Shown: positions 32,463-64,000, numbered from the stretch's first letter. The stretch: DNA of 64,000 nucleotides from Verrucomicrobiota bacterium (GCA_036803685.1 DAIRTX010000006.1:3797-67796); one strand, 5' to 3'. Numbers and translations are program-made. The notes: a model not told the origin generated them from the sequence alone.

Positions 32463-32469
32463 CGTTCCA

Positions 32470-37262: not shown

Positions 37263-37309
37263 AAAATACCAGCGCGCTGAAAACCCGCGCATATTTCTTT
37301 ACGGGTTAT

Positions 37310-37343
37310 ACAAAACTTTGTCGCATATGCGACAAAGTTTTGT
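37310..37343. repeat. 34-bp perfect palindrome, copy 1
   Basis: ACAAAACTTTGTCGCATATGCGACAAAGTTTTGT, abutting the paaX stop codon. Confidence 0.95.
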
Positions 37344-38134: not shown

Positions 38135-38169
38135 GACCGGATATTGGCAAGAGCAGGCAAGTAATGCCA

Positions 38170-38205
38170 TACAAAACTTTGTCGCATATGCGACAAAGTT
38201 TTGTA
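38170..38205. repeat. Perfect palindrome, copy 2 (36 bp including flanking T/A)
   Basis: Identical 34-bp core at 38171-38204, about 36 nt upstream of the paaX ATG. Confidence 0.95.
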
Positions 38206-38274
38206 ATGGCTGACACACCATCGTATGACAAAAACATGTTGGCGCGCATCATTCCTGCCGTGTAATTTGGGCTC

Positions 38275-40995: not shown

Positions 40996-41206
40996 CGGGC
41001 GCCACCGGGCAGCACCACCACCGAACGGGGTGAGCCGGCTTGGTGCCCCGTCCCGCCCTGCGAGACGGTAAAATCATGATGAGCCACAAGGACCGTCCCG
41101 CAAAGCGGGGCGGGACACCGAACGGTGGCAGAGCCAAATGCCCCCGCCATGACCCGACGTTGCAAAAAATCTCGCAACTGAAAACAAAACTGAGAGGATG
41201 CTTTGC

Positions 41207-43549: not shown

Positions 43550-43582
43550 AATTCAAATTGCCGCAGTCCGCCATCGTCAAAT

Positions 43583-44857: not shown

Positions 44858-44965
44858 AAATAAAAACAGACCCGTTCAGTTTTCAGGCGCAGGAGTCAGG
44901 TTGTCCAGAATGAAATTGCCCGGCGTGTCCTGCGGGATGCAACCGGGCACTGCCCGTAAATCCCA

Positions 44966-45060
44966 GCCGCCTACGCTACGGCGACGTGACCCGTGACGTG
45001 AAAATTAAAAAAGGCAAATTGTTTCAGTGGGATGGACAGTCGGAGTTGAAGTCCAATTGA
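44966..45060 (+). pseudogene. Orphan duplicate of the GH95 3' end
   Basis: [25 protein letters not shown], homologous to 43461-43536, ending in TGA at 45058-45060. Confidence 0.8.
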
Positions 45061-45080
45061 CCCGGGAGCTTGATTGCAAA

Positions 45081-45154
45081 GGCAGGGCGGCCAGTCTCCC
45101 GCCCGCCGTTCGTTTGAATAAATTTTCGGCGCGCACGGAGTGACGCGCCCTACC
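45081..45154. repeat. GG(C/T)AGGG...CCCTACC REP variant
   Basis: Termini match the REP family. Lies at the 3' end of xylB. Confidence 0.6.
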
Positions 45155-45157
45155 ACA

Positions 45158-46771
45158 TTAGCCAATTTGTTTCAGCGCTTCGCGTTCGCACGCGGCGTAT
45201 TTCTTGATGAGCTGGTCGTAAACGCGGGCGGCCTTCGGGTCCGGACGGATTTCGCTGTTGGGAACCGGGTCGGTGAAACCGGCCACGACTTTTTCCCATT
45301 TCGGTTTTTCCCCGGCCTGGACCAGCCAGCCATGCGCGGCTCGCAACGCGGCGCCCAGCGCGGCACTTTTGGAAATTTCGATGCGCTCGACACGGCAATT
45401 CATCACGTCGGCCATTACCTGCAGCAGGGGGACGTCGTTCGAAGCGCCGCCGGTGGCGTAAATGCAGCCGGGCGCGACCTTCATCCATTGTGAATGCAGC
45501 CGCATCGTCATCATCTGCGCCTCGACGATGGCGCGGCAGTTCGCCGCGGCGTCCTTTTCGTCGAGATCGAAACGGTGAATGCCCGGCTGGTTCACGCGCG
45601 GAACAATTTCGGCCTCAAACCACGGTAACAGGATGCCACCGTTGTTGCCCGGTGGTGTGGCGGCCAGCGCTTCGCCGAATTTTTTCCAGTCCCTGATGCC
45701 GTAGGCGTCGCGGATTTTTTCCCGGGCGAGCGACCCGTTCTTGAAACAAATCAACGTCATGTAATCGCCGGTCGGTGAACCGAACACGTGGCCTTCGCCG
45801 TGTTCGTCGGTCCGGCATTTTTTCATCGAGCCGAAATACGTGTCGCTGGTGCCCAGGCTGATGGCGACCATGCCTTCGCGAATCAAACCGAGACCAACCA
45901 CGCTGCACGGATTGTCGCCCGACCAGACCAAGGTCTGCGCTTCCGGGTTCAGGCCGAATTTTTTGACGAAATACGGACTGACCGCGCCGACGACTTCCCA
46001 GGATTCGGCCAGCAGTGGCAGTTTCTTTTTCAAATCCGGCGCGGTGGCCGCCAGCGCATCCGGATGCCAGGCTTTTTTGTGAATGTCCATCAGGTTCATG
46101 CCTGCGCCGTCGCCGTGGTCAATCGGCGCAATCTTCCCCGCCAGCAATGACGCCATGAACGAACTGACAAGCGCGATGCTCGCGGTTTGGGCGTAGGCTT
46201 CCGGTTCGGTCTTGTAAAACTTGCGGATTTGCGGACCGGTGAACCGTTCGAATGTGTCCGACCCTGTGGCCTCGGCCGTGGCCTTGATACCGCCAAGCTT
46301 TTTGCGGATTTCGGCGCATTCCGCGGCGGTTGAGGAATCCATCCAAATCGGCGAGGTCGGACGCGAAAAAATGCCGTCCGCCTTCGTTTCACTTCGGCGC
46401 GACAAGCGCAGATTTTCGACCAAGGGTTTTTGGGGATTCAACTTCGCCAGCACATCGGCGGCGCGGTCGTTGAGATAAACCGAGCCGTGCTGCTGGCCGC
46501 TGCCGCTGATGGCCAGGATTTCGCCCAATGCGACGCCGTCCTTTTTCATTTCGGCAAAGAGCAAATCCAGCGCCTCGGCCCACAGCAGGGGCGAGCTGTG
46601 TTTCACCAGCGGGTCGGGATTGGGCAGGACGCCGTTTTGCGTTCCGTACTGCGGCAGCACGCGGTCGAAGTTCAGCGATTTTCCATACACGAGCTTGCGG
46701 CGGTCGTAGTCAATGATCACCGCGCTCAGGCTTTGCGTGCTGGAATCGAGTCCGAGAAATAATTTGGCCAT
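45158..46771 (-). CDS. xylB: Xylulokinase (FGGY family)
   Basis: LGLDSSTQS, ISGSGQQHGSVY, SPIWMDSST, ERFTGPQIRK, ISLGTSDT, ATGGAS. Confidence 0.85.
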   Translation of the reverse strand: MAKLFLGLDSSTQSLSAVIIDYDRRKLVYGKSLNFDRVLPQYGTQNGVLPNPDPLVKHSSPLLWAEALDLLFAEMKKDGVALGEILAISGSGQQHGSVYLNDRAADVLAKLNPQKPLVENLRLSRRSETKADGIFSRPTSPIWMDSSTAAECAEIRKKLGGIKATAEATGSDTFERFTGPQIRKFYKTEPEAYAQTASIALVSSFMASLLAGKIAPIDHGDGAGMNLMDIHKKAWHPDALAATAPDLKKKLPLLAESWEVVGAVSPYFVKKFGLNPEAQTLVWSGDNPCSVVGLGLIREGMVAISLGTSDTYFGSMKKCRTDEHGEGHVFGSPTGDYMTLICFKNGSLAREKIRDAYGIRDWKKFGEALAATPPGNNGGILLPWFEAEIVPRVNQPGIHRFDLDEKDAAANCRAIVEAQMMTMRLHSQWMKVAPGCIYATGGASNDVPLLQVMADVMNCRVERIEISKSAALGAALRAAHGWLVQAGEKPKWEKVVAGFTDPVPNSEIRPDPKAARVYDQLIKKYAACEREALKQIG

Positions 46772-46823
46772 GGAAATTTAAATGTGTCGTTTGCGTCTTA
46801 TTTGGTAACAATAAATTTGAACC

Positions 46824-48959
46824 ATGCAATCGAAAACCGCACTTAGGCTTCATTTTCATAGTATTGTCCTGCTCTGCGCCATCGCGGCCCACGCCGCGCC
46901 GATCGACCGGCACGCGCTCGTGATGCGGCATAATGTCGTGCTGCATCAGTTCGACGCGGACAATCCGCTGACCATCGGGAACGGTGAATTCGCCTTCACC
47001 GTTGACGCGACCGGCCTGCAAACCTTTTCGGAAGCGTTCGAGCACACGACACCGCTCGGCACGTTGTCGGACTGGGGCTGGCACACGAATCCGAACACGA
47101 ACGGCTGGAGTATTGACTCTTTTCAGTTCAAGGAATTCGCGGACCTGAACGGGCGCAAAGTTCCCTACGCCGACGTGCCCGGCAACAATCAAACGCCCGA
47201 AATCAAATGGCTGCGCGCCAATCCGCATCGGTTGCACCTCGGCCAGATCGGTTTCCGGCTCACCCACGCCGACGGTTCGCCGGCGCGAACGAATGATTTG
47301 ATCGACGTTGAGCAGACGCTGGATTTGTGGGATGGCCTGCTCACCAGTCATTTCAAATTCGACGGCCAACCGGTTACGGTAAAAACCGTTTGCGATCCGA
47401 AACTCGATGCGATTGCAGTGCGCGTCGAGTCGCCACTAGTGAAACAAGGCCGGTTGACGATCCAAATTCATTTTCCCTATGGCACGGGCGAAACCATCAC
47501 GGCGGATTGGAGCCAACCGGACGCGCATGAAACCATTTTCTCGCAAGATAAAATCAATGTTGGACATTTTGAACGCAAGCTCGACAACGACACCTACGTC
47601 GTGGACGCCAAATGGTCGCAAGGTGCAACCATTACAAACACGGCCAAGCATCAATTTGAAATCCGGCCAAACAAAAAATTGGAATCGCTGGAGCTGGTCT
47701 GTGAGTTCGCCCCGAAATCAAACAGCCGGCTGACAAGTTTTGACCAATCCCGCCAGGATGCTGAAAAAAATTGGAACGCATTCTGGAGCACCGGCGGCGC
47801 GATTGATTTGTCCGGCAGCAAGGATCCGCGCTGGTTTGAGCTCGAACGCCGCATTGTCCTGTCGCAATACCTCACGGCGATCCAGGACGCCGGGGAATAT
47901 CCACCCCAAGAGACCGGGCTGACGTACAACACCTGGGAAGGCAAGTTTCACCTGGAGATGCACTGGTGGCACGAGGCGCACTTCGCGTTGTGGAACCGGT
48001 TACCGCTGCTGGAAAAGAGCCTCGGTTACTACCAGAAAATTTTGCCACGCGCGGAAGCCACGGCGCGAAAACAGGGCTACGCCGGCGCGCGCTGGCCGAA
48101 AATGACCGGTCCCGGCGGCGCGGAATCACCGTCGCCCGTCGGGCCGTTCCTGGTCTGGCAGCAGCCGCATCCGATTTTCTATGCCGAGCTTTGCTATCGC
48201 AGCCACGGCGACCGCAAAACGCTGGAAAAATACAGCAACATTGTTTTTGCGACGGCGGATTTCATGGCCAGCTACGCGACGTGGGACGACGCAACCAAAC
48301 GTTACGTGCTCGGCCCGACGTTGCAAAGCGCGCAGGAAATTTTTCCAAAGGACAAAACCTTCAATCCGACGTTTGAATTGACCTATTGGCGCTGGGGCCT
48401 GGGAACGGCGCAACTTTGGCGCGAACGGCTCGGTTTTCCGCGCGATGAAAAGTGGGACGCGGTCTTGAAAGGCCTCGCCCAAGCGCCGGTGGCCGACGGC
48501 AAATATCTCTTTACCGAAACCGCGCCGGATTCCTACACGAATCCGCGTTGGAACAAAGACCATCCCGCTGTGCTCGGTGCGTTGAGCTTCGTGCCCGGAC
48601 CGGGCATGGACACGACCACGATGCGGAACACGTTTGATTGGGTCTGGAAAAATTGGAACTGGCCGGACACGTGGGGTTGGGATTATCCGATGATGGCGAT
48701 GTGCGCCGCGCGGCTCGGCGAACCGGAACGCGCCGTGGATGCACTGCTGCTCGACACGCCGAAAAATCATTACGCGCTCAACGGCCAGGTTTACCAGCGG
48801 CCCGGCCTGACGATTTATCTGCCCGCCAACGGCGGCCTGCTTTACGCCGCGGCGATGATGGCCGCCGGCTGGGATGGTGCGCCGAAAAAGAACGCGCCCG
48901 GTTTTCCAGACAATGGCCAATGGAATGTGCGCTGGGAAAATCTGCGGCCGGCGCCGTGA
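46824..48959 (+). CDS. Secreted six-hairpin glycosidase-like protein (GH65/GH95-related, family unassigned)
   Basis: Signal peptide; PIDRHALV.RHN, IGNGEFAFTVDATGLQTF, ELERRIVLSQY, WEGKFHLEMHWWH, WGWDYPM, YLPANGGLL. Confidence 0.65.
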   Translation: MQSKTALRLHFHSIVLLCAIAAHAAPIDRHALVMRHNVVLHQFDADNPLTIGNGEFAFTVDATGLQTFSEAFEHTTPLGTLSDWGWHTNPNTNGWSIDSFQFKEFADLNGRKVPYADVPGNNQTPEIKWLRANPHRLHLGQIGFRLTHADGSPARTNDLIDVEQTLDLWDGLLTSHFKFDGQPVTVKTVCDPKLDAIAVRVESPLVKQGRLTIQIHFPYGTGETITADWSQPDAHETIFSQDKINVGHFERKLDNDTYVVDAKWSQGATITNTAKHQFEIRPNKKLESLELVCEFAPKSNSRLTSFDQSRQDAEKNWNAFWSTGGAIDLSGSKDPRWFELERRIVLSQYLTAIQDAGEYPPQETGLTYNTWEGKFHLEMHWWHEAHFALWNRLPLLEKSLGYYQKILPRAEATARKQGYAGARWPKMTGPGGAESPSPVGPFLVWQQPHPIFYAELCYRSHGDRKTLEKYSNIVFATADFMASYATWDDATKRYVLGPTLQSAQEIFPKDKTFNPTFELTYWRWGLGTAQLWRERLGFPRDEKWDAVLKGLAQAPVADGKYLFTETAPDSYTNPRWNKDHPAVLGALSFVPGPGMDTTTMRNTFDWVWKNWNWPDTWGWDYPMMAMCAARLGEPERAVDALLLDTPKNHYALNGQVYQRPGLTIYLPANGGLLYAAAMMAAGWDGAPKKNAPGFPDNGQWNVRWENLRPAP

Positions 48960-48986
48960 TTATTGAGGCTCGCGAAAATGAGCAGC

Positions 48987-49099
48987 GGGGCGCGGGCTTC
49001 AGCCCGCTTCACCCTCCGCAGTAATGAGACGCTGGAAATGCCTGGCCTGCTTTCGCTTCGCACGTCGAAGCGGTCCCGCAACGGGCGGGACCGCGCTCC
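48987..49099. repeat. MITE/REP of the 690-793 family, between convergent genes
   Basis: GGGGCGCGGGCTTCAGCCCGCTTC ... GAAGCGG...CCGCGCTCC. An (CTCGTC)n/(GACGAG)n inverted tract follows at about 49154-49228. Confidence 0.65.
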
Positions 49100-49247
49100 C
49101 AGTCCGGCACAGATTCGTTACCCACTGGTGCGAGATTCAATAGTGCTCCCGATTCGTTCTCGTCCTCCTCCTCGTCCTCGACCCATTGAAAAAATCGCGG
49201 ACGAGAACGATTACGACGACGAGGACGAATATCGGATGAACGAAAAT

Positions 49248-50435
49248 TTATTTCCCCGCGATCTTCACCGGCAGGGTCAATTGCGCCGGGCGCATCGTCG
49301 CATGGGCTTCCGAAGCGATGATGGCCCCGCCGTTCAAATCCACCGAAGCAACTTTGTTTGCCGCATCTTTGGGGAGATTGAAAACAAGCGTACCCGTGCC
49401 GCTGCCGGAGTCGTAATGGGCGAAAGTGCCGTCGCTCAATTTTAACTGTGGCTTGCCTTTCACCGTGACGTTCTCGCTGAACCCGACGCCAATTTGACCG
49501 GCGCCCACTTTGACCTGCCGGATGGCCGGCCCGGCGGTCCGTTCCGGGTCCCACTTGCCGGCAAACGTCCACGCGGCGGTGATTTGTGCGGGCTTGGGCG
49601 CACCGGGCGCGGCAGAAAGATTGTTGGTGAGCCAGCCATAATCGCCACCCTCGCGATGGCAATTGTAAAAATACGAGCGCTCGCCCCAGACATTCGATTT
49701 GTCCAACTCCTTGTTTTTCTGGATGTCACTCGCGCTGGGTGTTTTGTTGTCGAGCGGGTAGATGACGCGAAACGGCGGCTGGTCAATCATCGTCTTGGAA
49801 AACGTGCAATCGAGGAAATAGAATTGCGCGTCGTGGTGATGACGCGCGAGGTTCCATCCGTTGGTGCCATCAAACCGGCAGTCGCGCAGGACAAATTTCA
49901 TGTCCTTGTTCTTGGAGCCGTCGTGCCAGACGGCGGCGGTGTCCTTCATTTCGTAAAACGTGCAATTGGTCACGTAACACCAGCCGCGCGGGCAGACAAA
50001 ATCCACCGAGCCTTCAAACCGGCAGTTGGCGTGATAACACCGTCCGTGGTCGCCCCGCCAGAACGAAACCGTGTCCGCGCCATGGCTCAGCACGTCGCAA
50101 TCCACCACCACCGCGCGGTCGCCGGTGCCGAGAATGGTGAACGCGTGCGGCCCGATGACGCCGGCGGTGTTCTCCGCAGTGAGGTTCTCCAGGACAAAAT
50201 CGTCGGCGCGGTTCAGGTTGATGACCGCCCGGCCGATGGCGTCGGGGTTTTTGGTGAAGTCCTCGTCCAACTGCGGGAACTCGATGCGGGTGCCCTTGCG
50301 GCTCTGGCCGCACAACGTCACAAACGATGCGTCCACGCGGATTTTCTCATGGTAAGTTCCATCCTTGATGAACACCACCATGCGCTCGGTGTTCGTTTTC
50401 GGGATGGACGCGACGGCGGCTTGAATCGTTTGGAA
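49248..50435 (-). pseudogene. Pectin methylesterase (CE8), 5'-truncated
   Basis: FQTIQAAVASIP, IKDGTYHEKI, GADTV, FEGSVDFV. No signal peptide or N-terminus; it runs directly into the CHAT fragment. Confidence 0.75.
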
Positions 50436-50442
50436 AGCCGAA

Positions 50443-51021
50443 TTGAAGGCCGTCGTTTCCCCGCGCGTGCTGCATCTGGCCACGCATGGATTCTTTCTCC
50501 CGGATCAGGAAGTTCAGCGCACCAACTTCGGTAGGGCCGACCTGCTGGTCGGCTTGGACGCGCGGCAGCGCGTCCCTACCACGAAGAACGACTGGGAAAA
50601 CCCGCTGGTGCGTTGCGGCATTGCGCTGGCCGGGGCGAATCACGCGCTGCAAATCACCAACGCCATCGCGGAAGACGGATTACTCACGGGCTTGGAAGCG
50701 TCATTGTTGAATTTGCAGGGAACGGAACTGGTCATCCTGAGCGCGTGCGACAGCGGCTCGGGCGAGGTGAAGATTGGCGAGGGCGTGATGTCGTTGCGGC
50801 GGGCGTTCCGCATCGCGGGCGCGGAGAGCGTGCTGGCGAGTCATTGGCCAGTGAACGACAAAGCCACCAGCCGGTTGATGACGGAATTCATGCGCCGCTG
50901 GCGCGCAGGCGAGCCGGGAGCGCAGGCATGGCGTGAAGCACAATTGGAATTGCTGCGCTCAAAAGATTTTTCCAATCCTTACTTCTGGGCGGCGTTCACC
51001 CTGACAGGACAATGGAATTGA
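50443..51021 (+). pseudogene. CHAT-domain (caspase-like) C-terminal fragment
   Basis: VLHLATHGFF, LVILSACDSGSG, GEGVMSLRRAFRIAGA, PYFWAAFTLTG. Lacks the N-terminal TPR and most of the domain. In-frame REP at 50530-50580. Confidence 0.8.
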
Positions 51022-51257
51022 ACCTGAAAGCGGGCCTCGTCATCTCGGCTTCTATATTTTATTCGCCCTGCAATTGCCTTGATTTCAATAATTTCCCGTC
51101 CCAGTTTTGCGCCCATCTTGCGCCGTGAACAATTTGCATACGCAGGCAACTGGAAACTGTCGCGTGCGACATAACCAGAAATGGTGATTGCCTTGGCCGG
51201 CGGATTTTTCGGATAGTTTCCGGCAACACAAAAAATCCCGTTTAACTTTCATTTGCG

Positions 51258-52526
51258 ATGAGCTCACCAAACAACATTGAAAAGTCTTTTTCACTGGCCA
51301 AAGAACGTTACGCCGGATTGGGCGTGGATATGCACCGCGCACTGAAGATCCTGGAGAAAATTCCAATCTCGCTCCACTGCTGGCAGGGCGACGACGTCGG
51401 CGGCTTTGAAAATTTCGGCGGGACGTTGGGCGGCGGACTTGTCGTCACGGGAAATTATCCGGGCAAGGCGCGGACGCCGGATGAACTCCGCGCCGACCTG
51501 GAGAAAACCTTTTCGCTCGTCCCGGGCAAGCACCGCCTCAATCTCCACGCCTTCTATGGCGAGTTCGGCAGCCGGAAAGTGGACCGCGATCAAATCACGC
51601 CGGCGCACTTCAAAAACTGGATTGCGTGGGCCAAACAAAACGGCATCGGCATGGACTTCAATCCGACCTGCTTCTCGCATCCGAAAGCGGCCGACGGCTT
51701 CACGCTGGCACACGCGGACAAAAACATCCGCCGGTTCTGGATCGAGCACTGCATCCGCTGCCGCGAAATCGGCGCGGCCATCGGCCAGGCGCTCGAAAAA
51801 ACCTGCATCACGAACGTCTGGATTCCCGACGGCATGAAGGACACGCCCGCCGACCGCAACGCGCCGCGCGCGCGGCTCGCCGAATCGCTGGATGCCATTT
51901 TTAAGAAACCGATTTCACAGGAGCTGAACCTTGACGCCGTCGAACCGAAACTGTTTGGCATCGGCAGCGAGAGCTACGTCGTCGGTTCGCACGAATTTTA
52001 TCTCGGTTATGCCGTCAGCCGGAAGAAATTACTGACGCTGGACGCCGGCCATTATCATCCGACCGAGGGCATCGCGGACAAAATCTCCAGTGTGCTGCAA
52101 TTTTTGCCGGAGATTTTGCTGCACGTCAGCCGCGGCGTCCGCTGGGACAGCGACCACGTGGTGATTTTGAACGACGATTTGCAGGCCATCGCCCGCGAAA
52201 TCGTGGCGAACGGTTTCGTTGACCGCGTCCACATCGGACTCGATTACTTCGACGCCAGCATCAATCGGGTTGCCGCCTGGATCATCGGCACGCGCAACAT
52301 GCTTCGCGCCCTGCTCTTCGCGCTGCTGGAACCGACGGCGAAACTTCGCGCCGCCGAAAGCGCCGGTGATTACACGACGCGCCTGGCGTTGCAGGAGGAA
52401 ATCAAGTCGCTGCCGTTCGGCGCGGTGTGGGATTTTTATTGTGAGAGCAAAGGCGTTCCGGTCGGCGAGGCGTGGCTGGCGGAAGTGAAGCGTTACGAAA
52501 AGAATGTCTTGAGCAAACGGCAGTAA
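51258..52526 (+). CDS. rhaA: L-rhamnose isomerase
   Basis: [78 protein letters not shown]. Confidence 0.96.
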
Positions 52527-52562
52527 GCAAACAACTTAATCCGCAAATCAAATTAATACACC

Positions 52563-53699
52563 ATGGGCAATCCATTCTTAGGCGTTTTCTTTCACTGGCT
52601 CGGCGGTCTCGCTTCCGGAAGTTTTTACGTGCCTTACCGCGGCGTGAAAAAGTGGTCGTGGGAAACCTACTGGCTCGTCGGCGGATTTTTCTCGTGAATC
52701 ATCTGCCCGTGACTGCTGGCGTCCCTCATGACCAACGATTTGTTGGGCGTGCTGAAGCAACAATCGGCGAGCACGCTGTGGTGGACGTATTTCTTCGGCG
52801 CCATGTGGGGCTTCGGCGGGCTGACGTTTGGTCTGACCATGCGTTACCTCGGCATGTCGCTGGGCATGGGTGTGGCGTTGGGCTACTGCGCGGCGTTTGG
52901 AACACTGGTGCCGCCGATTTTCAAACAGTTCATGCCGAACCTCCCGGTGGGAGCAAGCATCAAGGAAATCGCCACTTCCACACCCGGACAGATCACGCTG
53001 GCGGGGGTGGCGGTTTGTTTGCTGGGCATCGGCATCGCCGCGCTGGCGGGTTTCACCAAGGAAAGGGAAATGCCGGAAGAGCAAAAAAAGAAGGTCATCA
53101 AGGAATTCAATTTCAAGAAGGGCATTTTGGTGGCAACCTTTTCCGGCATCATGAGCGCGTGCTTTGCTTTTGCGCTCACGGCGGGCAATCCGATCGGCGA
53201 CGCCTCCCTGACGGCGGGCACCAACAAAATCTGGACCGGCCTCCCCAAGCTCATCGTGGTGCTGCTCGGCGGCTTCACGACGAACTGCATCTGGTGCGTG
53301 CTGCTGAATTTGAAAAACCGCAGCGGCTACCAATACTTTTCTTCCCATATCCGCGCCGAACACGCTTCCACGCCGGGCGCGGCTGTTGCCGTGTCGCAAA
53401 CCGATCTCAAGGTGCCAGTGCTGGCCAACTATCTTTTCTCCGCCCTGGCCGGCACCTGCTGGTATTTTCAATTCTTCTTCTACACGATGGGCGAGACGCA
53501 GATGGGCAAATACAGCTTCGCAAGCTGGACGCTGCACATGGCGAGCATCATCATTTTCAGCACGATGTGGGGCTGGATTTTGCACGAGTGGAAAGGCTCC
53601 AGCAAGAAGGCGCACCTGCTCATTGGCGGTGGCATCGCCACACTCGTGCTCTCGACCATCATCATCGGTTTCGGCACCTATTTGAAGAGCAAGCAATAG
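52563..53699 (+). pseudogene. rhaT: L-rhamnose/H+ symporter with two in-frame TGA codons at Trp positions
   Basis: MGNPFLGVFFHWLGGLASGSFYVPY..KKWSWETYWLVGGFFS*IICP*LLA continues in frame into ORF 52728-53699. TGA at 52695 and 52710. Confidence 0.85.
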
Positions 53700-53705
53700 T
53701 CGGCC

Positions 53706-54020
53706 ATGAAACGCCACGCCTTCAAAATGAAGTTGAAGCCCGGCGTGGCGGCGGAATACAAAAAGCGTCACGACGAAATCTGGCCGGAGCTGGCGGCGGA
53801 ACTGCGGGCGGCGGGCGTTTCGGATTACTCGATTTTCCTCGATGAAGAGACGCTCACGCTGTTCGCCGTTCAAAAGTTGAGCAAAAAAAATTCCGCCGCT
53901 GATTTGCCCAATTCCCCCATCGTCCGCAAATGGTGGGATTACATGGCCCCGTTGATGGAAGTGCATCCCGACAACGCACCCGTCGCGAAACCGCTCAAGG
54001 AAGTCTTTCACCTCGACTGA
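53706..54020 (+). CDS. rhaM: L-rhamnose mutarotase
   Basis: AFKMKLKPG..EYKKRHDEIWPEL..YSIFLD..RKWWDYMA..EVFHLD. Confidence 0.95.
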   Translation: MKRHAFKMKLKPGVAAEYKKRHDEIWPELAAELRAAGVSDYSIFLDEETLTLFAVQKLSKKNSAADLPNSPIVRKWWDYMAPLMEVHPDNAPVAKPLKEVFHLD

Positions 54021-54023
54021 AAC

Positions 54024-54066
54024 TGGCGCACCCATCAGGAGTTGAACCTGAAACCTTCTGGTCCGG
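54024..54066 (-). mobile_element. 3' half of a tRNA-Arg (probable att site)
   Basis: Minus strand reads CCGGACCAGAAGGTTTCAGGTTCAACTCCTGATGGGTGCGCCA (anticodon 3' side, T-arm, acceptor strand, CCA). No matching 5' half is present. Confidence 0.7.
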
Positions 54067-54157
54067 GGTAAACCCATGGCAGTCTGCGTGTCTTCGCGGG
54101 TTCATCCTGTGATACCAATTCTCCGTAACAACCGGAACTTTGGTTGATTGTGTGGAA

Positions 54158-54301: not shown

Positions 54302-55336
54302 TCACGCCGCCACCGCAAACGCTTCATCGGTGGCAGGACGGTCGCGCTCCTCCATTCCGGCCCGCAATTTCTTGAGCGCCTCCTCCTGGATCTGCCGGAT
54401 GCGTTCGCGGGTCACACCAAAATGCTCACCAACCTCTTCCAGGGTTTTCGGCCGGCCGTCATTCAGCCCAAAACGCAGGGCGAGGATCGCGCTTTCGCGC
54501 CTGGTGAGGGTGGCCAGAACTTCCCGCACCAGGTTCCGGTCGGTTTCCCGGATGAGCCGGTCAAAGGGCAATGCCGCATTCGGGTCGGCCACCACTTCCG
54601 AGACGCGACTCGACTCGTCGTCACCCAGCGGCGCGTCCAGTGAAACCGGCGCCCGGGACGCCTGGCGATATTGCCGCACGCGCCGCGGATTGAGTCCCAA
54701 AGCGTCCGCCACCTCTTCATCGGTCGGGTCCCGGTCGAGGACTTCGCGGAGCTTCCGTTCCGCGCGACGGATATGGGTCATCTTGTCGACCACATGGACC
54801 GGCAGGCGGATGGTCTTCGACTGGTTCGCCAATGCCCGCAGGATGCTCTGCTTGATCCACCACGAGGCGTAAGTGGAGAGCTTCGCTCCCTTCCTGGGAT
54901 CAAACCGTTCCACTCCCTTCATCAAGCCGATGTTGCCCTCATTGATGAGGTCGAGCAGCGGCAGGCCCAGCCCGTCATAGTCGCGGGCGATTTTCACCAC
55001 CAACCGCAGGTTAGCCTTGATCATCTGTTCGCGCGCCGCTTTGTCACCCCGCTTGATTCGCCGGGCGAGCGCGATTTCCTCCTTGGGCGTCAGCAATTGC
55101 ACCTGGCCGATCTCGCGGAGATAGAGTTGCAAGGCGTCGCCGCGGGGCAAATCTGCCCGCACTGGTTCCGCCGGCTCGCTTTCCGTCGCCACCGGCGGGG
55201 TCGGCAGTACCCCGGCGGTGGGTGACGCCGACAAAGCACGACTTCGCTTCGGCAGACGCGACGGGGCCAAATGGATGCGAGACGGTGTGAGGCTGGTCGC
55301 CCTCGACCGGTAAGTCCGCTGAAATATGGTTTTCAT
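54302..55336 (-). CDS. RpoD/RpoS-like sigma70 factor paralogue (no region 1.1)
   Basis: LQLYLREIG, ANLRLVVKIA, DLINEGNIGLMKGVERFD, STYASWWIKQ, TLEEVG..FGVTRERIRQI. Confidence 0.95.
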   Translation of the reverse strand: MKTIFQRTYRSRATSLTPSRIHLAPSRLPKRSRALSASPTAGVLPTPPVATESEPAEPVRADLPRGDALQLYLREIGQVQLLTPKEEIALARRIKRGDKAAREQMIKANLRLVVKIARDYDGLGLPLLDLINEGNIGLMKGVERFDPRKGAKLSTYASWWIKQSILRALANQSKTIRLPVHVVDKMTHIRRAERKLREVLDRDPTDEEVADALGLNPRRVRQYRQASRAPVSLDAPLGDDESSRVSEVVADPNAALPFDRLIRETDRNLVREVLATLTRRESAILALRFGLNDGRPKTLEEVGEHFGVTRERIRQIQEEALKKLRAGMEERDRPATDEAFAVAA

Positions 55337-56732: not shown

Positions 56733-57803
56733 TCAGTTCCCGGCTTTCCGGTGCATGGCCTGTTTGAAAAACTCGCCGGACCCGGTGAGATCATAATCCC
56801 ATGAGGCCAACAGGCTCGGTCCCCACTCGGGATCAAAACACCAGACCATCCAACTGATCCCCTTCCCTTCCAGATAATTGATGATGAGATTTCCGTAATC
56901 GTCATCCTTCAGTGCGGTTCCCTTGGGCACGGTAAAACCAAACTCGGTCGCGATGACCGGGTAACGGCCGGCGGCGAACCCAAAATCCTCCTCCCACTTC
57001 GGTTCCCAGGGCTTCGACCGCTTGTTCGCATAGGGATGCGTCACATATCCGACGCCTTCCGCTTCGAGGGGCTCGAGGTTGAGCGGAGTCAGGTCGTACG
57101 CCCAATCGAGACCGGCCACGAGGGGAATCTTTTCGGTGTCAAACGCCCGAATCAGCCGGATCATGTCCTCGTTCAACTTTTTCCATTCACTCCACGACAT
57201 GCTGCCCAACTGGCCCCGGTAGAGGGTCGGTTCATTGAACAGTTCATAAAAGGCAATGGTGTGGGTCCCCTTGAAATGTTGCGCCATCGTCCGCCAGAAT
57301 TCGAACGTCTCCGGTTGCGTGGTGTCGTACATGGGGTCCTGGAACAGCTCCATCTGCAAGTTGCCGATGCTGTGCCAGTCGATTATGATGCGCAGGTTCA
57401 GTTCCGTGCACCAATCCACCGCCTGGTCGAGCAGTTTGAGATACTCGCGCGGCGTGCGCTCGCGCCAGGCCGCCGGATGAACCGGGATGCGGACGAGGGT
57501 GGCGCCCATTTCCTTCACCTTCTCAAAATGGTTTTTGTTCCAGTGTCCCTGGTGTTCGAGCTTGTCGGGATCGGAAATTGACAGGCCCCGGAACAGGACG
57601 GCTTTGCCGTCCGGATCGACAAATTTGTTCCCTTGCACCCGGATCAGGGGAAGTTGGTTCGTCTGGGAACTGGTGAAAGGCGGGCCGAAGGGCCGGTCCT
57701 GCCACCAGCGATGGTAGTCATTGGTCCGGGCGGTTGGCTGGGCGTTGGCGTGTTGGAGACAGAGCAAGACTGTGCCGAGAATGGTAAAGACGGTTTTTTT
57801 CAT
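56733..57803 (-). CDS. GH5 endoglucanase/cellulase-family hydrolase
   Basis: Signal peptide; VRIPVHP, IIDWHSIG, YELFNEP (acid/base), IATEFG (nucleophile). Confidence 0.9.
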   Translation of the reverse strand: MKKTVFTILGTVLLCLQHANAQPTARTNDYHRWWQDRPFGPPFTSSQTNQLPLIRVQGNKFVDPDGKAVLFRGLSISDPDKLEHQGHWNKNHFEKVKEMGATLVRIPVHPAAWRERTPREYLKLLDQAVDWCTELNLRIIIDWHSIGNLQMELFQDPMYDTTQPETFEFWRTMAQHFKGTHTIAFYELFNEPTLYRGQLGSMSWSEWKKLNEDMIRLIRAFDTEKIPLVAGLDWAYDLTPLNLEPLEAEGVGYVTHPYANKRSKPWEPKWEEDFGFAAGRYPVIATEFGFTVPKGTALKDDDYGNLIINYLEGKGISWMVWCFDPEWGPSLLASWDYDLTGSGEFFKQAMHRKAGN

Positions 57804-58192
57804 TTTTTGCCACCCAGTCAATACCGCCATCGCCGTCCGCTTGGCAAGCACGGGATGAATTGACCCCTTTCTCCCCTGCCCGGTTTAATTTTGCCGGAAC
57901 GTCCCAGCCAGCCGGGACCGCCGCGCAAGGATTGATGTCGCTCAAGGCTTGTCCCGCCGGCTTTTTTCTCTGAAATTCGATGCGGCTTTCAGCCGCCGTC
58001 CCGTGTTCTTCGGGATTCAGCGTTCGGTGTCCCGCCTTCAGGCGGCCCATTCGACGTTGGATGTTGCAGCGGTCACTGCCTGCGACACTTTGATGCTTCG
58101 ATGCCGGTTTTGAACGATTTCAACAACTACGGCCTTTCCGCAAAGAAAGGCCGTAGTCACCGGAACACAAATATAATCTTAGTCTTGGATCA

Positions 58193-59638
58193 TCAAGGAT
58201 TAGACAAGCGGAAGAACACCGCCGGATTGGCCGGGTTTATCGCGATAGTAAACGGACTGTTCGTGCCGCTGCCTGTTGGGAGCCATGAGTGGGAGAGATT
58301 GGTTATAACACCCGCACTGTTCGTCAGAGCCAGAACGCTATAACCCGGGAAAGTGGTGCTGTCCCAAGACAAGGTCAGCAGCCCGCCGCTTTGGGACAAA
58401 GTAATGATTGGGGAACCAGCGCCACCGTTGGCAACGGCAATTGATCCACTCGAAAGCAGATTATCAACCCAGATGAGGCCGGGAGAAAGGCTCGGAAAAC
58501 TAGTGGAAGCGAACGCGCCGCCATAATTCGTAGCACTAAAAAATTTATAGCTGTTGCCCAACACCGGCGCAGGACCAGAGTTGATAACATTCAATATTCC
58601 GCTATAGAATAACCAATTCGTCCCGGCCTTGAGAACAATCTGGTTGGTTTTGGCAAGGTCGAATACCAGTGTTCCATGTAGTGTCGGCGTGTTGGTGGTG
58701 AGGGTTATCGTGGTGCCGATGGTATAGGTTCCATTGACCGTTATGGTCGGGATCGTCAGCGAATTGCTGCCGGTGATGATGCCCGTGCCGTCAAAAGAGA
58801 TGCTGCCATATCCCGCGCCAAATATAGATCCATTATTTGTAAGACTCCCGCCGATACCCCACGTCGTTACGTCTGACACATACCAACCATTCGTATAGAC
58901 GCCGCCAGACCAAGTCTTTACACTGGTGCTGGGGCCGGCGACGATTACGTTGCCGTCAATGTGGTTGGTACCCAGCGCGCTGTTCAAGTCCTCCAGCAAA
59001 CCATAAACATAAACGTTACCCCCCACTGTTAAAACGTCCCCAGAGCAATCCCAGGCGCAGCCTGAGCCAATGATCAGATTGCCATTGATGGTAATCGGCG
59101 CTCCTCCGTTTCCTTGTTGAACTTTGACAGCTCCCATCAAAGTCATGTTGCCGGCAATAGTCATGGGCGTAGGCCCAGCGGCACTGGAGAAGTTGTTAAA
59201 GTCTGCCCATGGGGAGCCATACGGCGCTAATGGGTTAACATAATTGGTTTGGACAAACACGAGATTGTAATAATTGCATTGCTTGGCACCGAAAGGGTTG
59301 GCTGAATAAATGACGGTGTTGTCGGGGGCCGTGGTAACTAAGGTTGTATGCGTATCAATCGCTGCATCTTCGGTCAAGTTTAGAGAGGAATTTGCCGCCA
59401 TGGTTACCGTTCCAGAGTCGTAAATAAATTGAACCGTCACATTTGTATCCACAGTAACGTTGATGCCAAACGGGACATCCACATCGTCGGTTGCTCCCGG
59501 CACGGTTCCGCTGTCCCAAATAGTAACGTCGGACCAGTTACCGCTGTTGGTAGCAGTGATATCTGCCGCGCGGCTCATCGAAGCGAAAAGCACGATGGAC
59601 AGGATGGTTAAAATCGCAAAGATTTGTTTTGTTTTCAT
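58193..59638 (-). CDS. Secreted G8/beta-helix-like protein with C-terminal FFRL domain
   Basis: Signal peptide MKTKQIFAIL; SGNWSD..IWDSGTVPGATDDV start; autotransporter-passenger-like tail; ends PAVFFRLSNP. Confidence 0.7.
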   Translation of the reverse strand: MKTKQIFAILTILSIVLFASMSRAADITATNSGNWSDVTIWDSGTVPGATDDVDVPFGINVTVDTNVTVQFIYDSGTVTMAANSSLNLTEDAAIDTHTTLVTTAPDNTVIYSANPFGAKQCNYYNLVFVQTNYVNPLAPYGSPWADFNNFSSAAGPTPMTIAGNMTLMGAVKVQQGNGGAPITINGNLIIGSGCAWDCSGDVLTVGGNVYVYGLLEDLNSALGTNHIDGNVIVAGPSTSVKTWSGGVYTNGWYVSDVTTWGIGGSLTNNGSIFGAGYGSISFDGTGIITGSNSLTIPTITVNGTYTIGTTITLTTNTPTLHGTLVFDLAKTNQIVLKAGTNWLFYSGILNVINSGPAPVLGNSYKFFSATNYGGAFASTSFPSLSPGLIWVDNLLSSGSIAVANGGAGSPIITLSQSGGLLTLSWDSTTFPGYSVLALTNSAGVITNLSHSWLPTGSGTNSPFTIAINPANPAVFFRLSNP

Positions 59639-59944
59639 TGGTTGGGTTGGTTGGGTTTGTCTGGTTGAAATTATTGAATTGAGCAATGGAAATGGGGAGC
59701 AAGTGGAATTAGGCATCAGACGGAATCAAATTATTAAATGTTGTTGCAGTGTTTGATTATAGGCATTGATGTAAAAACCAAGCGGTCAATCCCTGATAAA
59801 TTTGTTTTACGCTGTGTCGCGATAATTTTGTCACTTTAACCGGCAACTAGCAAGCAACGCAACTGACCTTGCCGCTCCATTTCAAGTCCCGGTTGATTTA
59901 CGGATGTGAACATGCATGAATTTACTCTGATTTACCGGTCCAGA

Positions 59945-59974
59945 GTAGTCGCATGAAATGGTGACAGGGCAAAA
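59945..59974 (-). promoter_or_regulatory. 30-bp conserved upstream motif, copy 1
   Basis: Sense strand TTTTGCCCTGTCACCATTTCATGCGACTAC. Confidence 0.7.
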
Positions 59975-60137
59975 ACAGGTGTTTCCCTGCCGACAGGCAT
60001 CCTGACGAGGACGCTTGGTTCCGGCATCAGTTGCTCGTTGAGCTGGCCGACTTCCAGCGGGACCTGGAAAATCGGAGATTGCCTCTTGGCTGCCGCGTAT
60101 GAACACTTCAGATCTCCTGCGGAAGAATATAATAAAC

Positions 60138-60163
60138 AAAAAAGCCGCCCCGAAAGGCGGCTT
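60138..60163 (-). terminator. Rho-independent terminator of the PEP-CTERM gene
   Basis: AAGCCGCC-N6-GGCGGCTT stem with a minus-strand T run. Confidence 0.65.
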
Positions 60164-60192
60164 GAAAAACCAATTGGAAACTTTTCCGTTGT

Positions 60193-60825
60193 TTATTTAC
60201 GACGACGGAAGGCCAGAAGGCCAGCGGCACCCAAGCCAACCAACGCCAGCGTAGCCGGTTCAGGGACAGGCGACAGGACGAGACTGTTAAACGTAATATC
60301 ATAATTCCCCGAAACATTAGCTGGATCTATTTGAAAGTTCATGCCGTTTATTATAGCGCCAGCTGCAACATTGGCTTGATTAGGGGCTTGAAGAGCGAAG
60401 GTATAACTATTTAAACCTGGGGTCGGAACGACATACCCAGTTCCATAGTAATCTACACCGCCCAGGCTATCACCAAGTGCAAACAAAACATTTACCCCAC
60501 CAACTGCAATACCGGAGTTCCAAGTAAAGTCAAACGTGACCTGTGTATCGAGGAGGTTGAGTAGTGTCTGGTCGCCCAAAGGAATGGGGTAATACATTTG
60601 GCTAAACGAGCCGGTGCCGCCGGGTGCATTAAACTCCAAGCCGGTTGCGGTTGACGTAATCGTCGCAAGAGGAGTGGCCCATAAGCCGCCATATGACGGG
60701 CCAACAGCAGGAATATTTGACAAATAGGGGGTACCGGTGATGGGTTGCGCCTGCGCCGAGTTGACCATGACCAGACCACTTGCCACTGCAAGCACGGCCG
60801 CAAACCATTTTGAATGTTGTTTCAT
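60193..60825 (-). CDS. PEP-CTERM sorting domain protein
   Basis: Signal peptide; ends VPEPATLALVGLGAAGLLAFRRRK. Confidence 0.95.
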   Translation of the reverse strand: MKQHSKWFAAVLAVASGLVMVNSAQAQPITGTPYLSNIPAVGPSYGGLWATPLATITSTATGLEFNAPGGTGSFSQMYYPIPLGDQTLLNLLDTQVTFDFTWNSGIAVGGVNVLFALGDSLGGVDYYGTGYVVPTPGLNSYTFALQAPNQANVAAGAIINGMNFQIDPANVSGNYDITFNSLVLSPVPEPATLALVGLGAAGLLAFRRRK

Positions 60826-61022
60826 AAGTTTATTTTTTTGATTTTATTGATTTTATTGATGTTTAAGGTTCCGCCGATGAAAATCAAGGTCTGACGAACA
60901 TTCCGACTTGGCACCCGAGATCTTTCCCAAGCGCAAACATATCTGATGAGCTTCTGAACAAGTTTTTCATTGGTCGTTTCAATGGGTTTCGCAATGACTT
61001 TAGCGCTGATGAACCTTTCACG

Positions 61023-61052
61023 GTAGTCGCATGAAGTGGTGACATGGCAAAT
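61023..61052 (-). promoter_or_regulatory. 30-bp conserved upstream motif, copy 2
   Basis: Sense strand ATTTGCCATGTCACCACTTCATGCGACTAC. Confidence 0.7.
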
Positions 61053-61159
61053 TGGACGTAATTTCACGTAATTCACGTGATTCCGGTGTGGCGGATGGGT
61101 GAATCGCCTCCGACATCGCATTCTTTTCTTGGAAGCCGGGAACATTGATTGGGAGACGT

Positions 61160-61172
61160 GGGGGGGGGGGGG
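61160..61172. repeat. G13 homopolymer in the divergent intergenic region
   Basis: 13 consecutive G. Confidence 0.8.
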
Positions 61173-61346
61173 ATTTCGTTCGCGCAAAAGAAGACCGGCT
61201 CGATTGCCATCATGCGATTCGACAAAGGAACTGCCGCCGTGCTGCGCCCGCTGCCTGCTTTCGGCCTGCTGTTTCCCTATCTTTGTTCATTTTCTCCATG
61301 TTTAGACGATAGCGAATTGCTTTGTTTTCGCAAGGATTGCAGGCCA

Positions 61347-61376
61347 TTTTGGCCTGTCACCGTTTCATGCGACTAT
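61347..61376 (+). promoter_or_regulatory. 30-bp conserved upstream motif, copy 3
   Basis: Sense strand TTTTGGCCTGTCACCGTTTCATGCGACTAT. Confidence 0.7.
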
Positions 61377-61492
61377 TGAGGTTTGGAACAAAGATGTTAA
61401 GTTAAAAGAGTCACCAGTTCCTATGTGCGCAGGCGTCGGATTTGGGCGCCGAAGAGCCATCAACTGGAAATGACATTGCAAAGAGAAATATT

Positions 61493-62476
61493 ATGAATAT
61501 TCTTAAAATGACGGCCGGGGTGGAACAGCTTGAAAGAGAAGAGTTGCCCAGCCAGCCCTTGGAGTTTCCCCAAAGCGGCGTCAAAGCCCGATCTTTGAAA
61601 TCGGCTTTTACTTTGATCGAATTGCTGGTCGTCATTGCGATTATTGCCATTCTGGCGGCCCTGTTGCTTCCGGCTTTGAGCAAAGCAAAGGACCGCGCGT
61701 TGGCGATAGCCTGTTTGAGCAACACCAAACAAATCGGCCTTGGTTTTACCATGTATGCGGGTGATAACGGAGATTATTTTCCGGCGCCACCGCTATGGCG
61801 GACGGATGGTGCGACTTACAAAAATTCACATGGAAAGCTCGCTGGAACAGAATGGTTTTATGGCACTAGTTCAAGCACTTGGGTTCCAAATTCACCGGCT
61901 CCCATGATGGTGAATTATCTACAAAACAACCTGGTTTGGGTATGCCCCAAACGGCACCGAGGGCTGACTTATCCTAATGAACCCGGGGATTGGGATCCGA
62001 GCATAACTGGTTTTCTTTCCTATGGATTCAATGACCTTGGTGTTTTTGGTGCCGTAGATGCCAGCAGTGGTGCTATGCAGAATGCTAAACGATTCAAAGC
62101 CTCTTCAGTTTTGAGAGCATCAGACTTGGTAGCTCTTACTGATACCAGCGGCTCAATTAGCCCCGTCACCTCGGCATCTGCTGCCGCCTGGTTGGATTCT
62201 GTATGGTCGGGAATGTCTGGTTCTGGACAGCCGATAGCAAACGGCTACAACGACCGCCTTCAGACCGCTTACGCGAAACATAATAATCGTGTGAATGTCG
62301 TTTATGTGGATAATCATGCCGCACCCTCGTTACCAAGTGCTCTCACTTGGGGACAGTTTTATGGTGTTTTTGGCAAAGCCACTCTCCCAACTTCTTACTC
62401 CACTACAGTGCAAGCAGACGATTCTATCAGCAGTCCGGATCGTGATAGCCAGGAATGGTCCAGCGCGCCGGAATAA
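61493..62476 (+). CDS. Prepilin N-methylation protein of the DUF1559/H-X9-DG type
   Basis: KSA|[40 protein letters not shown]; C-terminal H-X9-DN ([13 protein letters not shown]). Confidence 0.88.
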
Positions 62477-62608: not shown

Positions 62609-64000
62609 ATGAAAAATCGTTTCTCCCATCTCGTTGCTGTTGTTGTTGTTGCGCTCTCTTTTTCGATTGGCGTCCCCTGGCTGTCAGCAGCCCCGGCTGG
62701 GGAAAAGGCGCAAATCGAGAAAGTTGTTACTTCGCCCAATGATAAAATTTCACTGGTTTTTAGCCTGACCGACGGAATGCCCTCCTATGCGGTGAACTTC
62801 AAGGAACGGCCCGTTATTCTTTCCTCGGCGCTCGGGTTCGAGCTGAAGGGCGGTGCGATGAAGACGGGTTTCACGTTGCTCGATGCCCAGAGGTCGTCCA
62901 AGGATGAAACCTGGACCCAGCCCTGGGGTGAACAACGAGAGGTGCGCAACCACTATAATGAACTGGCGGTCACCTTGCAGCAGGCAGGCGATCAGGGGCG
63001 TAAATTGCGGGTTATATTTCGCGCGTTTGATGACGCCATCGCCTTCCGTTACGAATGGCCGGAACAGGCTGCGCTCAAGAATTTCGACATCATGGATGAA
63101 CTGACGGAATTCGTCTTTCCTGCCGATCCCATGGCCTTGTGGCAGCCGACCTTTCGCCCGCAACATACCGAACAACTTTATGCCAAAACCCGGTTGAGCG
63201 AGTTGCTGCGGCAGACGCGACTTGAACACGGCGATGCAGTCGCGGGTGATAACCCGAAAAGGGACCCCGTGAAGGCGGTGACCACCCCGCTGATCATGCA
63301 GACCGACGATGGTGTGTTTCTGGTCATCCATGAGGCCGACCTGACTGACTACGCAGCCATGGAACTTCAACCCAGGGATAACAACACATTGAAATGCTAT
63401 CTGGCACCGTGGTCGGACGGAGTCAGAGTCAAAGCCTCCGCGCCCTCGGCTTCTCCCTGGCGGTTCGTGATGATCAGCGACAAGCTGTCGGACATCGTCG
63501 AAGCGACGTCGGCGACCGCCCTCAATCTTAATCCTCCTTCGCGCATTGCCGACACTTCGTGGATCAAACCAGGCAAGTATGTGGGTATCTGGTGGGGGAT
63601 GCACTTGGGCAAATATACCTGGCATCCGAGCAAGCCGGGGCAGGACAGTTCCGATGGCCTTGGCGCCACGACCAAAAACACCCGTGAATACATTGATTTC
63701 GCCGGCAAATATGGTTTCAGCGGAGTTTTGGTGGAAGGTTGGAATAAAGGTTGGGCCAAGGATTGGGTCGCGCATGCAGCAGAATTCAACTTTACCGAGC
63801 CGACCCCGGCGTTTGATCTGCCGGGGCTTGCCGCCTACGCCCATGAAAAAGGGGTGGACCTCATTTCCCATCACGAAACCGGATCGGTCATCACCAATTA
63901 CGAGGCGCAGGTGGAAGCCGCTTTTGCCCAGTGCGAGCGCTTGGGCATTCACCATGTAAAATCCGGCTACGTCGGCATGGAGCCCCGCGTAAACCGCTAT
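62609..64000 (+). CDS. GH97 alpha-glucosidase/galactosidase (runs off the window end)
   Basis: Translated by hand from ATG 62609: signal peptide, TWTQPWGEQREVRNHYNEL, SWIKPGKYVGIWWGMH, YIDFA..VLVEGWNKGW, HHET. Confidence 0.88.
   Translation, partial: MKNRFSHLVAVVVVALSFSIGVPWLSAAPAGEKAQIEKVVTSPNDKISLVFSLTDGMPSYAVNFKERPVILSSALGFELKGGAMKTGFTLLDAQRSSKDETWTQPWGEQREVRNHYNELAVTLQQAGDQGRKLRVIFRAFDDAIAFRYEWPEQAALKNFDIMDELTEFVFPADPMALWQPTFRPQHTEQLYAKTRLSELLRQTRLEHGDAVAGDNPKRDPVKAVTTPLIMQTDDGVFLVIHEADLTDYAAMELQPRDNNTLKCYLAPWSDGVRVKASAPSASPWRFVMISDKLSDIVEATSATALNLNPPSRIADTSWIKPGKYVGIWWGMHLGKYTWHPSKPGQDSSDGLGATTKNTREYIDFAGKYGFSGVLVEGWNKGWAKDWVAHAAEFNFTEPTPAFDLPGLAAYAHEKGVDLISHHETGSVITNYEAQVEAAFAQCERLGIHHVKSGYVGMEPRVNRY

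Follow-up and report, generated by a model that had tools for sequence, protein, structure and literature searches.

Activators of the NarL/LuxR family are known from sites with internal symmetry: the lux box (LuxR/TraR) and the Dev box (DevR/DosR) are dyad-symmetric, and the heptamers of NarL are inverted, in a 7-2-7 arrangement. Here we describe a near-invariant 21-bp box in a 64,000-nucleotide stretch of DNA from a Verrucomicrobiota bacterium (GCA_036803685.1, DAIRTX010000006.1:3797-67796; the whole stretch is called the window below, and positions are counted from its first letter), where it stands upstream of genes for a PEP-CTERM-anchored protein, a secreted protein, and a prepilin-type protein. 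Gene linkage and promoter geometry argue that this box is probably the activator site of a NarL-type response regulator that controls a glycan-use regulon. It resembles the class II sites of NarL/LuxR-family activators in its length of ~20 bp, in its predicted position (overlapping or replacing the -35 region, centred in the low -40s), and in the retention of a -10 element where the -35 hexamer is absent. Its proposed binder shares with these activators the GerE-type helix-turn-helix and, with the response regulators among them, the pairing with a HisKA_3 kinase, and the right arm of the box (GCGACT/GTGACT) is similar to the DosR half-site GGGACT. Unlike the lux, Dev, and NarL sites, however, the box, with the regulator as its predicted binder, is asymmetric, strictly polar, and nearly invariant across an order. 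We file it as a new case of a known sort of element, the response-regulator box; a literature search on the motif string and on Verrucomicrobia, PEP-CTERM, and two-component control returned nothing relevant on the motif or the arrangement.

Other described systems share single features with this locus. The marbox (MarA/SoxS/Rob, AraC family) and the pho box (PhoB) are, like the present box, asymmetric elements of ~20 bp that function according to their orientation and their distance from the -10/-35 elements, and the pho box likewise replaces the -35 hexamer; the present box differs from both in having no linked AraC- or OmpR-family regulator and no clear direct repeat at a period of 10-11 bp, and it lies further upstream than the pho box does. 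Pho-box direct-repeat and 7-2-7 NarL readings of the box, weighed from sequence, were either rejected or left open. With the hybrid two-component systems (HTCS) and polysaccharide utilisation loci (PULs) of Bacteroides, the locus shares a kinase whose periplasmic Reg_prop/Y_Y_Y (beta-propeller) domain is homologous to the BT4663 and BT4673 sensors, as well as a set of regulated genes made up of glycoside hydrolases and surface glycan-binding-like proteins. In contrast to the HTCS, a single polypeptide with AraC-type output, the kinase and its NarL-type regulator are split, and instead of a SusC/SusD pair the surface parts are a PEP-CTERM protein that resembles carbohydrate-binding modules (CBMs), a beta-helix protein, and a pseudopilin-like protein. 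A Bacteroidetes-type PUL with an HTCS was thus rejected as a class, because the gene tables hold no SusC/SusD, the kinase and regulator are separate genes, and the sensor domain alone is shared. Two-component control of PEP-CTERM protein genes is known from PrsK/PrsR-sigma54 (Zoogloea-type floc formation), and a two-component system over a PEP-CTERM gene is also what we propose here; the difference is that a NarL-type regulator takes the place of the NtrC-type enhancer-binding protein, and that no sigma-54 -24/-12 element occurs in or after the box. A sigma-54 promoter was likewise rejected, since the three window copies contain no GG-N10-GC (two of them have GCC, not GG) and the linked regulator is NarL-type.

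The original prediction, made from the window sequence alone, described a non-palindromic 30-bp pattern lying in sense orientation upstream of three neighbouring genes. This pattern has exactly three matches in the window, all without mismatches, at 59945-59974 (minus strand), 61023-61052 (minus strand), and 61347-61376 (plus strand), and 100 dinucleotide-preserving shuffles gave none. The copies lie 307, 198, and 117 nt from the start codons of the 481-aa gene, the PEP-CTERM gene, and the prepilin-like gene, respectively, as had been claimed, and each is co-oriented with the gene downstream. The boxes and the genes beneath them are as follows.

58193..59638, minus strand: 481-aa secreted protein ('FFRL' protein), target gene of box 1
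59946..59966, minus strand: box copy 1, TGTCACCATTTCATGCGACTA, upstream of the 481-aa beta-helix gene; orthologous position kept in 18-23 other loci
60142..60163, minus strand: strong intrinsic terminator after the PEP-CTERM gene, separating this gene from the box 1 promoter
60193..60825, minus strand: PEP-CTERM-anchored protein, 210 aa, target gene of box 2
61024..61044, minus strand: box copy 2, TGTCACCACTTCATGCGACTA, upstream of the PEP-CTERM gene; in the same place before its orthologues in most loci of at least 65% identity
61355..61375, plus strand: box copy 3, TGTCACCGTTTCATGCGACTA, upstream of the prepilin-like gene and divergent from copy 2
61493..62476, plus strand: prepilin-type (N-terminal methylation motif) pseudopilin-like protein, 327 aa, target gene of box 3
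62609..64000, plus strand: glycoside hydrolase of family GH97, truncated at the end of the window (734 aa in the source contig)

The conserved unit is one contiguous 21-bp block, TGTCACC-NN-TTCATGCGACTA. When searched as TGTCACCNNTTCATGCGACTA, this core returned the same three window sites even with three mismatches allowed, and a position weight matrix scan of the whole 64 kb found no weaker copies, with a next-best score of 11 (in the shuffle range) against 38-41 for the three sites. Beyond ~30 bp the flanks of the three copies do not align to one another, which indicates a short motif rather than a longer duplicated segment. The description of the motif as non-palindromic is essentially right: TGTCAC (positions 1-6) and GCGACT (positions 15-20) stand in a weak inverted relation, with 4/6 bases complementary; positions 5 and 16, which are symmetric mates, are both variable, and the central TTCATG is invariant and asymmetric.

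Among 77 non-redundant copies, a set restricted to at most three mismatches and therefore inflated in its apparent invariance, 13 of the 19 specified positions never vary, two vary once, and positions 5, 12, 16, and 21 tolerate substitution; positions 8-9 form the variable spacer, and the information content of the box is ~34 bits. A TAnnnT hexamer follows the core at a fixed spacing, lying 20-22 nt downstream in 67 of the 77 copies, against a background of ~0.5 per offset. The information of this hexamer resides in its T, its A, and its final T, which is the signature of a sigma-70-type -10 element, and an A is enriched 8 nt further on. The -35 region of the same copies has the consensus TAYCGN, with no TTGACA-like hexamer, and no extended -10 (TGn) is present. 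If the start site is taken as 7-8 nt past the hexamer, the box would span about -54 to -34, with its centre near -44.5, where the -35 hexamer is missing; it is thus predicted to replace the -35 element at a fixed distance from the -10 element, as a class II site does. In the window, this geometry predicts the following promoters.

59919..59924, minus strand: predicted -10 element TAAATT, 21 nt after box 1; predicted start ~59911-59913, 5' untranslated region (5'UTR) ~274 nt
60997..61002, minus strand: predicted -10 element TAAAGT, 21 nt after box 2; predicted start ~60989-60990, 5'UTR ~164 nt
61398..61403, plus strand: predicted -10 element TAAGTT, 22 nt after box 3; predicted start ~61409-61410, 5'UTR ~83 nt

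The box is conserved across uncultured soil Verrucomicrobia (Limisphaerales). An exact search with the 19 specified bases, in one genome per bacterial species, found the core in 21 stretches of species-representative genomes, 19 of which carry the same Limisphaerales-type gene cluster. Fifteen of these 19 are labelled Verrucomicrobiia, Verrucomicrobiota, or Limisphaerales, two are labelled 'bacterium' only, and two bear other names, namely L001 (Bifidobacteriaceae) and L021 (Binatia), both with the same boxes and Limisphaerales-type genes. A protein labelled Methylomirabilota (P0278) likewise belongs to a Limisphaerales-type locus, and L001, L021, and P0278 are probably misbinned contigs in public metagenome-assembled genomes. 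The remaining two of the 21 stretches look like chance matches, of which ~4 are expected for a pattern of this size. The gene after the box is a PEP-CTERM orthologue in 13 loci and a prepilin-like, 481-aa, GH99-like, or GH31 gene in the others.

A motif-independent test, in which 57 metagenome loci were retrieved only by alignment of the PEP-CTERM protein (7 sequences), gave a consistent picture. In most loci where that protein is at least 65% identical, a box with 0-3 mismatches lies 50-225 nt before the gene; a second copy precedes the gene that follows, and there is often a third, in the opposite orientation, before the divergent prepilin gene. The sense orientation and the position relative to orthologous genes are thus kept across species, and the claim of a dedicated cis-regulatory element is borne out. 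The box recurs both in Verrucomicrobiia/Limisphaerales genomes and in soil or peat metagenomes. In more distant PEP-CTERM relatives, the upstream region is either unrelated or carries a variant box (TGTGGTC-NN-TTCATGTGACTR); the variant, as TGTGGTC-NN-TTCATGTGACT, lies upstream of the PEP-CTERM genes in L050, L055, L058, and L062, with TAnnnT still at offset 21. In L062, this version with its changed left half shares the locus with a standard box before a GH87 gene, and in one L069 copy (3870-3891, minus strand) the spacer is 3 nt long rather than 2 nt (TGTCACC-ACT-TTCATGCGACTA). Individual promoters also keep their own versions of the box across species: PEP-CTERM promoters have A8, C12, A21, and CC at 22-23; prepilin promoters have G8, T9, T12, and TT at 22-23; and GH99-like promoters have G21. 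From the sequences, this suggests a graded affinity among the promoters.

The evidence that ties the box to a regulator comes from its neighbours. When the open reading frames (ORFs) of 78 loci were clustered, the genes recurring beside the targets encoded a GH99-like hydrolase (18 loci), a 207-aa response regulator (13), and a ~1230-aa sensor kinase (11). The regulator consists of a receiver and a GerE helix-turn-helix of the NarL/LuxR type, and its sequence places it with NarL (1a04, 9e-31), DevR, and VraR. The kinase (1233 aa in the source genome) contains Reg_prop repeats, Y_Y_Y, HisKA_3, and HATPase_c; its sensor domain matches BT4663 (4a2l, 2e-48), the glycan-sensing domain of Bacteroides hybrid two-component systems, and its DesK/NarX-type HisKA_3 core matches DesK/VraS. 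Neither gene was found in the window by tblastn. Contigs encoding an identical PEP-CTERM protein extend past the 3' end of the window, and there the two-component genes start ~2.3 kb beyond it. Kinase and regulator are convergent with GH97, and next to them stands a divergent GH99-like gene preceded by a fourth box (L080:1452-1472, one mismatch, TAnnnT at offset 20). The source-genome order is thus the GH99-like gene with its box, the kinase-regulator pair, GH97 and the prepilin-like gene with their box, and, divergent from the latter, the box and PEP-CTERM gene followed by the box and beta-helix gene, with four boxes in total. In other species, L086 has the same gene order and four boxes, and L085 has three boxes and the kinase.

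A reverse test gave the same association: L088-L090, three loci selected solely for an orthologue of the regulator, all contain the kinase, the regulator, and 1-3 boxes, and in each of them one box lies between the kinase gene and a divergent GH99-like or GH87 alpha-1,3-glucanase gene, which it faces. Conversely, L087, the single related locus examined without the two-component system, has a PEP-CTERM relative beside a GntR/LacI-type regulator and has no box. Forward, reverse, and co-absence tests therefore agree that a putative cognate regulator and kinase are genetically linked to the sites, as expected of a class II activator. The regulator is also unusually conserved, with >120 protein clusters at 86-95% identity, compared with ~60-80% for the target proteins of the same genomes; its recognition helix is almost invariant, a degree of conservation in line with that of the box. 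In L080, L088, L089, and L090, no sense-oriented box precedes the kinase-regulator operon itself. The operon always starts 59-157 nt from the distal end of the divergent box (L080:1473-1629, L088:6133-6263, L089:6141-6261, L090:6047-6105), so a regulator bound there could also act on the operon that encodes it.

In the mechanism that we favour, the kinase would sense an oligosaccharide and phosphorylate the regulator, which would bind the box at ~-54 to -34 and recruit housekeeping-type RNA polymerase to promoters with a good -10 element and no -35 hexamer. The arrangement would be that of a class II activator, with TAnnnT 21 +/- 1 nt downstream of the box. Its targets in the window would be the genes of the CBM-like PEP-CTERM protein of the surface, of the secreted beta-helix protein, and of the pseudopilin-like protein, with GH97 probably on the same transcript as the last.

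Several observations weigh against this assignment. The box is asymmetric and strictly orientation-dependent, whereas most NarL/LuxR-family sites are dyad-symmetric or heptad repeats, and the inverted relation within it (GTCAC versus GCGAC) is only weak. The loci with the variant box (L050, L055, L058, and L062) show no matching change in the recognition helix, and there is hence no protein-DNA covariation to support the link between regulator and box. The ~34 bits exceed the need of one regulator, and a second partner or function for the box is possible. Finally, linkage cannot separate direct binding by the regulator from the action of an unlinked factor downstream of it.

The same observations lend some weight to an alternative that we consider less likely but a serious rival, in which the box is the activator or repressor site of another DNA-binding protein encoded elsewhere, for instance a monomeric AraC/MarA-type protein with two helix-turn-helix motifs, and the adjacent two-component system is merely a co-regulated member or an upstream input. 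The box shares with a marbox its asymmetry, its length of ~20 bp, and its dependence on both orientation and distance, and both the left-half variant without a matching recognition-helix change and the information beyond a single regulator's need would fit such a binder. However, the loci share no other recurrent DNA-binding gene, and searches in either direction find the kinase-regulator pair together with the box, while L087 is without either; it is also the linked regulator that is unusually conserved in parallel with the box.

Much less probable is the reading put forward in the original prediction, namely a bipartite promoter (TTTGSC as -35, CGACTA as -10) read by a dedicated alternative sigma factor, extracytoplasmic function (ECF) or other, from which transcription would start 6-7 nt after CGACTA. 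The three window copies do show the formal 16-nt spacing (TTTGSC-N16-CGACTA), and a sigma-70-family gene lies ~4.6 kb away. Between species, though, the proposed -35 TTTGSC is unconserved, with only a weak T-richness of at most 0.2 bit upstream of the core; the proposed spacer is the most conserved part of what is a contiguous 21-bp block; and the model does not predict the conserved TAnnnT, which lies 20-22 nt downstream (typically 21 nt) and would place the start ~34-35 nt after CGACTA instead. No ECF sigma or anti-sigma gene occurs in any locus (seven of 16-20 kb plus short loci), and no box precedes a sigma gene. The nearby sigma at 54302, named earlier as a possible reader of the box, has regions 1.2, 2, 3, and 4, which make it RpoD/RpoS-like and not ECF, and it is syntenic in close relatives only. 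Of the earlier proposal of 'a sigma or activator', the activator half thus fits the evidence, whereas the sigma half lost its support, with no ECF gene linked to the box.

An action of the motif in RNA, as a transcribed leader element, or its origin as a relic of a short mobile or repeat element is highly improbable: the long distances to the start codons (117-307 nt) and a possible conserved long-range helix in the PEP-CTERM leader downstream of the box would be in keeping with it, but there is no Rfam match and no conserved complementary partner for the box, the -10-like element downstream means that the box is probably untranscribed, and the flanks are unrelated while the position at orthologous genes is kept across distant species, unlike that of a mobile repeat. 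An Rfam scan of 59500-61700 gave sub-threshold matches only, on the terminator at 60134-60278.

Turning to the regulon under NarL-type control that we favour, the earlier claim that surface proteins, a pilin-like protein, and GH97 are controlled together is supported, with GH97 probably included through co-transcription. The 132-nt gap between the prepilin-like gene and GH97 contains neither a box nor a terminator, and GH97 is therefore probably co-transcribed with the prepilin-like gene, as judged from the sequence. Across the loci, the enzymes encoded behind boxes are GH97, GH31, GH87 alpha-1,3-glucanase, and a distant GH99-like family. Because GH99-like, GH87, and GH31 genes of the source genome and of related ones have boxes in front of them, an alpha-linked glycan is the probable inducing substrate, perhaps a fungal-wall-type alpha-glucan or alpha-mannan.

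The non-enzymatic products were examined by structure prediction. The AlphaFold2 model of the PEP-CTERM protein (mean pLDDT 78, most of the core >90) is a beta-sandwich whose best PDB matches are carbohydrate-binding modules: CBM15 (1gny, 5e-6), CBM28, CBM11, CBM61, and CBM16. As the TM-scores to these modules are only 0.43-0.54, the model indicates a resemblance in fold and is no proof of function; a comparison with the PepA model gave a weak match, well below the cut-off. The 481-aa protein, which has no Pfam, NCBIfam, or PDB sequence match, is modelled (pLDDT 84) as a beta-helix with a small C-terminal beta domain, with a weak fold match to 7jvi (2e-3). After this beta domain, the protein and its orthologues share a conserved C-terminus, ...NPANPxVFFRLSNP (window 58193-58230), and a similar ending occurs in other box-driven proteins, such as the GH99-like protein of L017 (...SRFFKLQE). 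This conserved C-terminus may be a lineage-specific sorting or anchoring signal.

On a more tentative level, the box might mark an undescribed Verrucomicrobia-specific counterpart of the Bacteroidetes PUL, which would combine a split HTCS-like sensor and NarL-type regulator, a single near-invariant asymmetric box, and a Sus-free glycan-capture apparatus with alpha-glycan hydrolases. The exosortase-anchored CBM-like, the beta-helix, and the pseudopilin-like proteins would make up the capture apparatus. The high information and strict polarity of the box could reflect a role of the regulator's GerE domain in place of sigma region 4 at promoters that lack a -35 element.

Almost nothing is known about the promoters and regulons of soil and peat Verrucomicrobia (Limisphaerales), which are abundant and mostly uncultured carbohydrate degraders. 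A box of ~34 bits with a predicted -10 element and start is a sequence handle by which the regulon could be located in any metagenome, and it assigns a likely DNA site to a sensor kinase and its response regulator. Moreover, PEP-CTERM and 'prepilin-type' proteins form two very large families of unknown function in these bacteria, and their place in this regulon suggests that they are induced together with glycoside hydrolases for glycan acquisition.

The leaders of the PEP-CTERM genes have features of their own. In many long leaders, pairing is possible between a 5' segment like CCGAUGAAAAU and a 3' segment, AUUUUCAUCGG(C)GGAACC, which sits just before the A-rich ribosome-binding region, with a variable insert of 10-90 nt between the two segments; short-leader versions are without the pairing. 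The leaders concerned are the PEP-CTERM 5'UTR of the window (60826-60990) and those of L001, L009, L013, L014, L020, L021, L024, L026, L032, L033, L052, and L071. Cognate 5'/3' duplexes have an energy of -20.95 kcal/mol, compared with -18.76 kcal/mol for non-cognate ones (permutation p ~0.003), which is weak support for the helix, and RNAalifold predicted no pairs on a MAFFT alignment of the leaders that is poor across the variable insert.

Two further features lie in the divergent region between box 2 and box 3. Directly upstream of box 2, at 61053-61092, are three tandem repeats of ~9-10 nt (CACGTGAAT / TACGTGAAA on the minus strand), also present in the close relative L014, which could be the site of a second regulator. 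A G13 homopolymer occupies 61160-61172 and reads G10+TG, G11+TG, or G13 in near-identical contigs of other samples, a length variation that reflects either real slippage or homopolymer sequencing error.

In the wider neighbourhood, a GH5 gene (56733-57851) follows the beta-helix gene at a distance of 341 nt, and a type II secretion/type IV pilus-like cluster at 22391-34185, several genes of which have no Pfam match, may be the system that assembles the prepilin-like protein under box control. These features and the sigma factor gene mentioned above are placed as follows.

26622-27485: N_methyl pseudopilin, in the 22391-34185 cluster
28209-29519: T2SSF gene, in the same cluster
29553-31262, 31272-32366, and 32470-34185: three T2SSE ATPases, in the same cluster
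54302-55336: RpoD/RpoS-like sigma factor, ~4.6 kb from the motif

Two very large ORFs are found on the minus strand, at 7380-17930 (3516 aa) and at 18291-22394 (1367 aa), the second of which has no Pfam match. Carbohydrate-catabolism genes fill the region 34299-54077, where no boxes occur, and comprise GH2, a PaaX-like regulator, GH3 with malectin, GH95, DUF2264, an FGGY kinase, and L-rhamnose isomerase; this catabolic neighbourhood continues in the source contig L081 with RhaT and RhaM.

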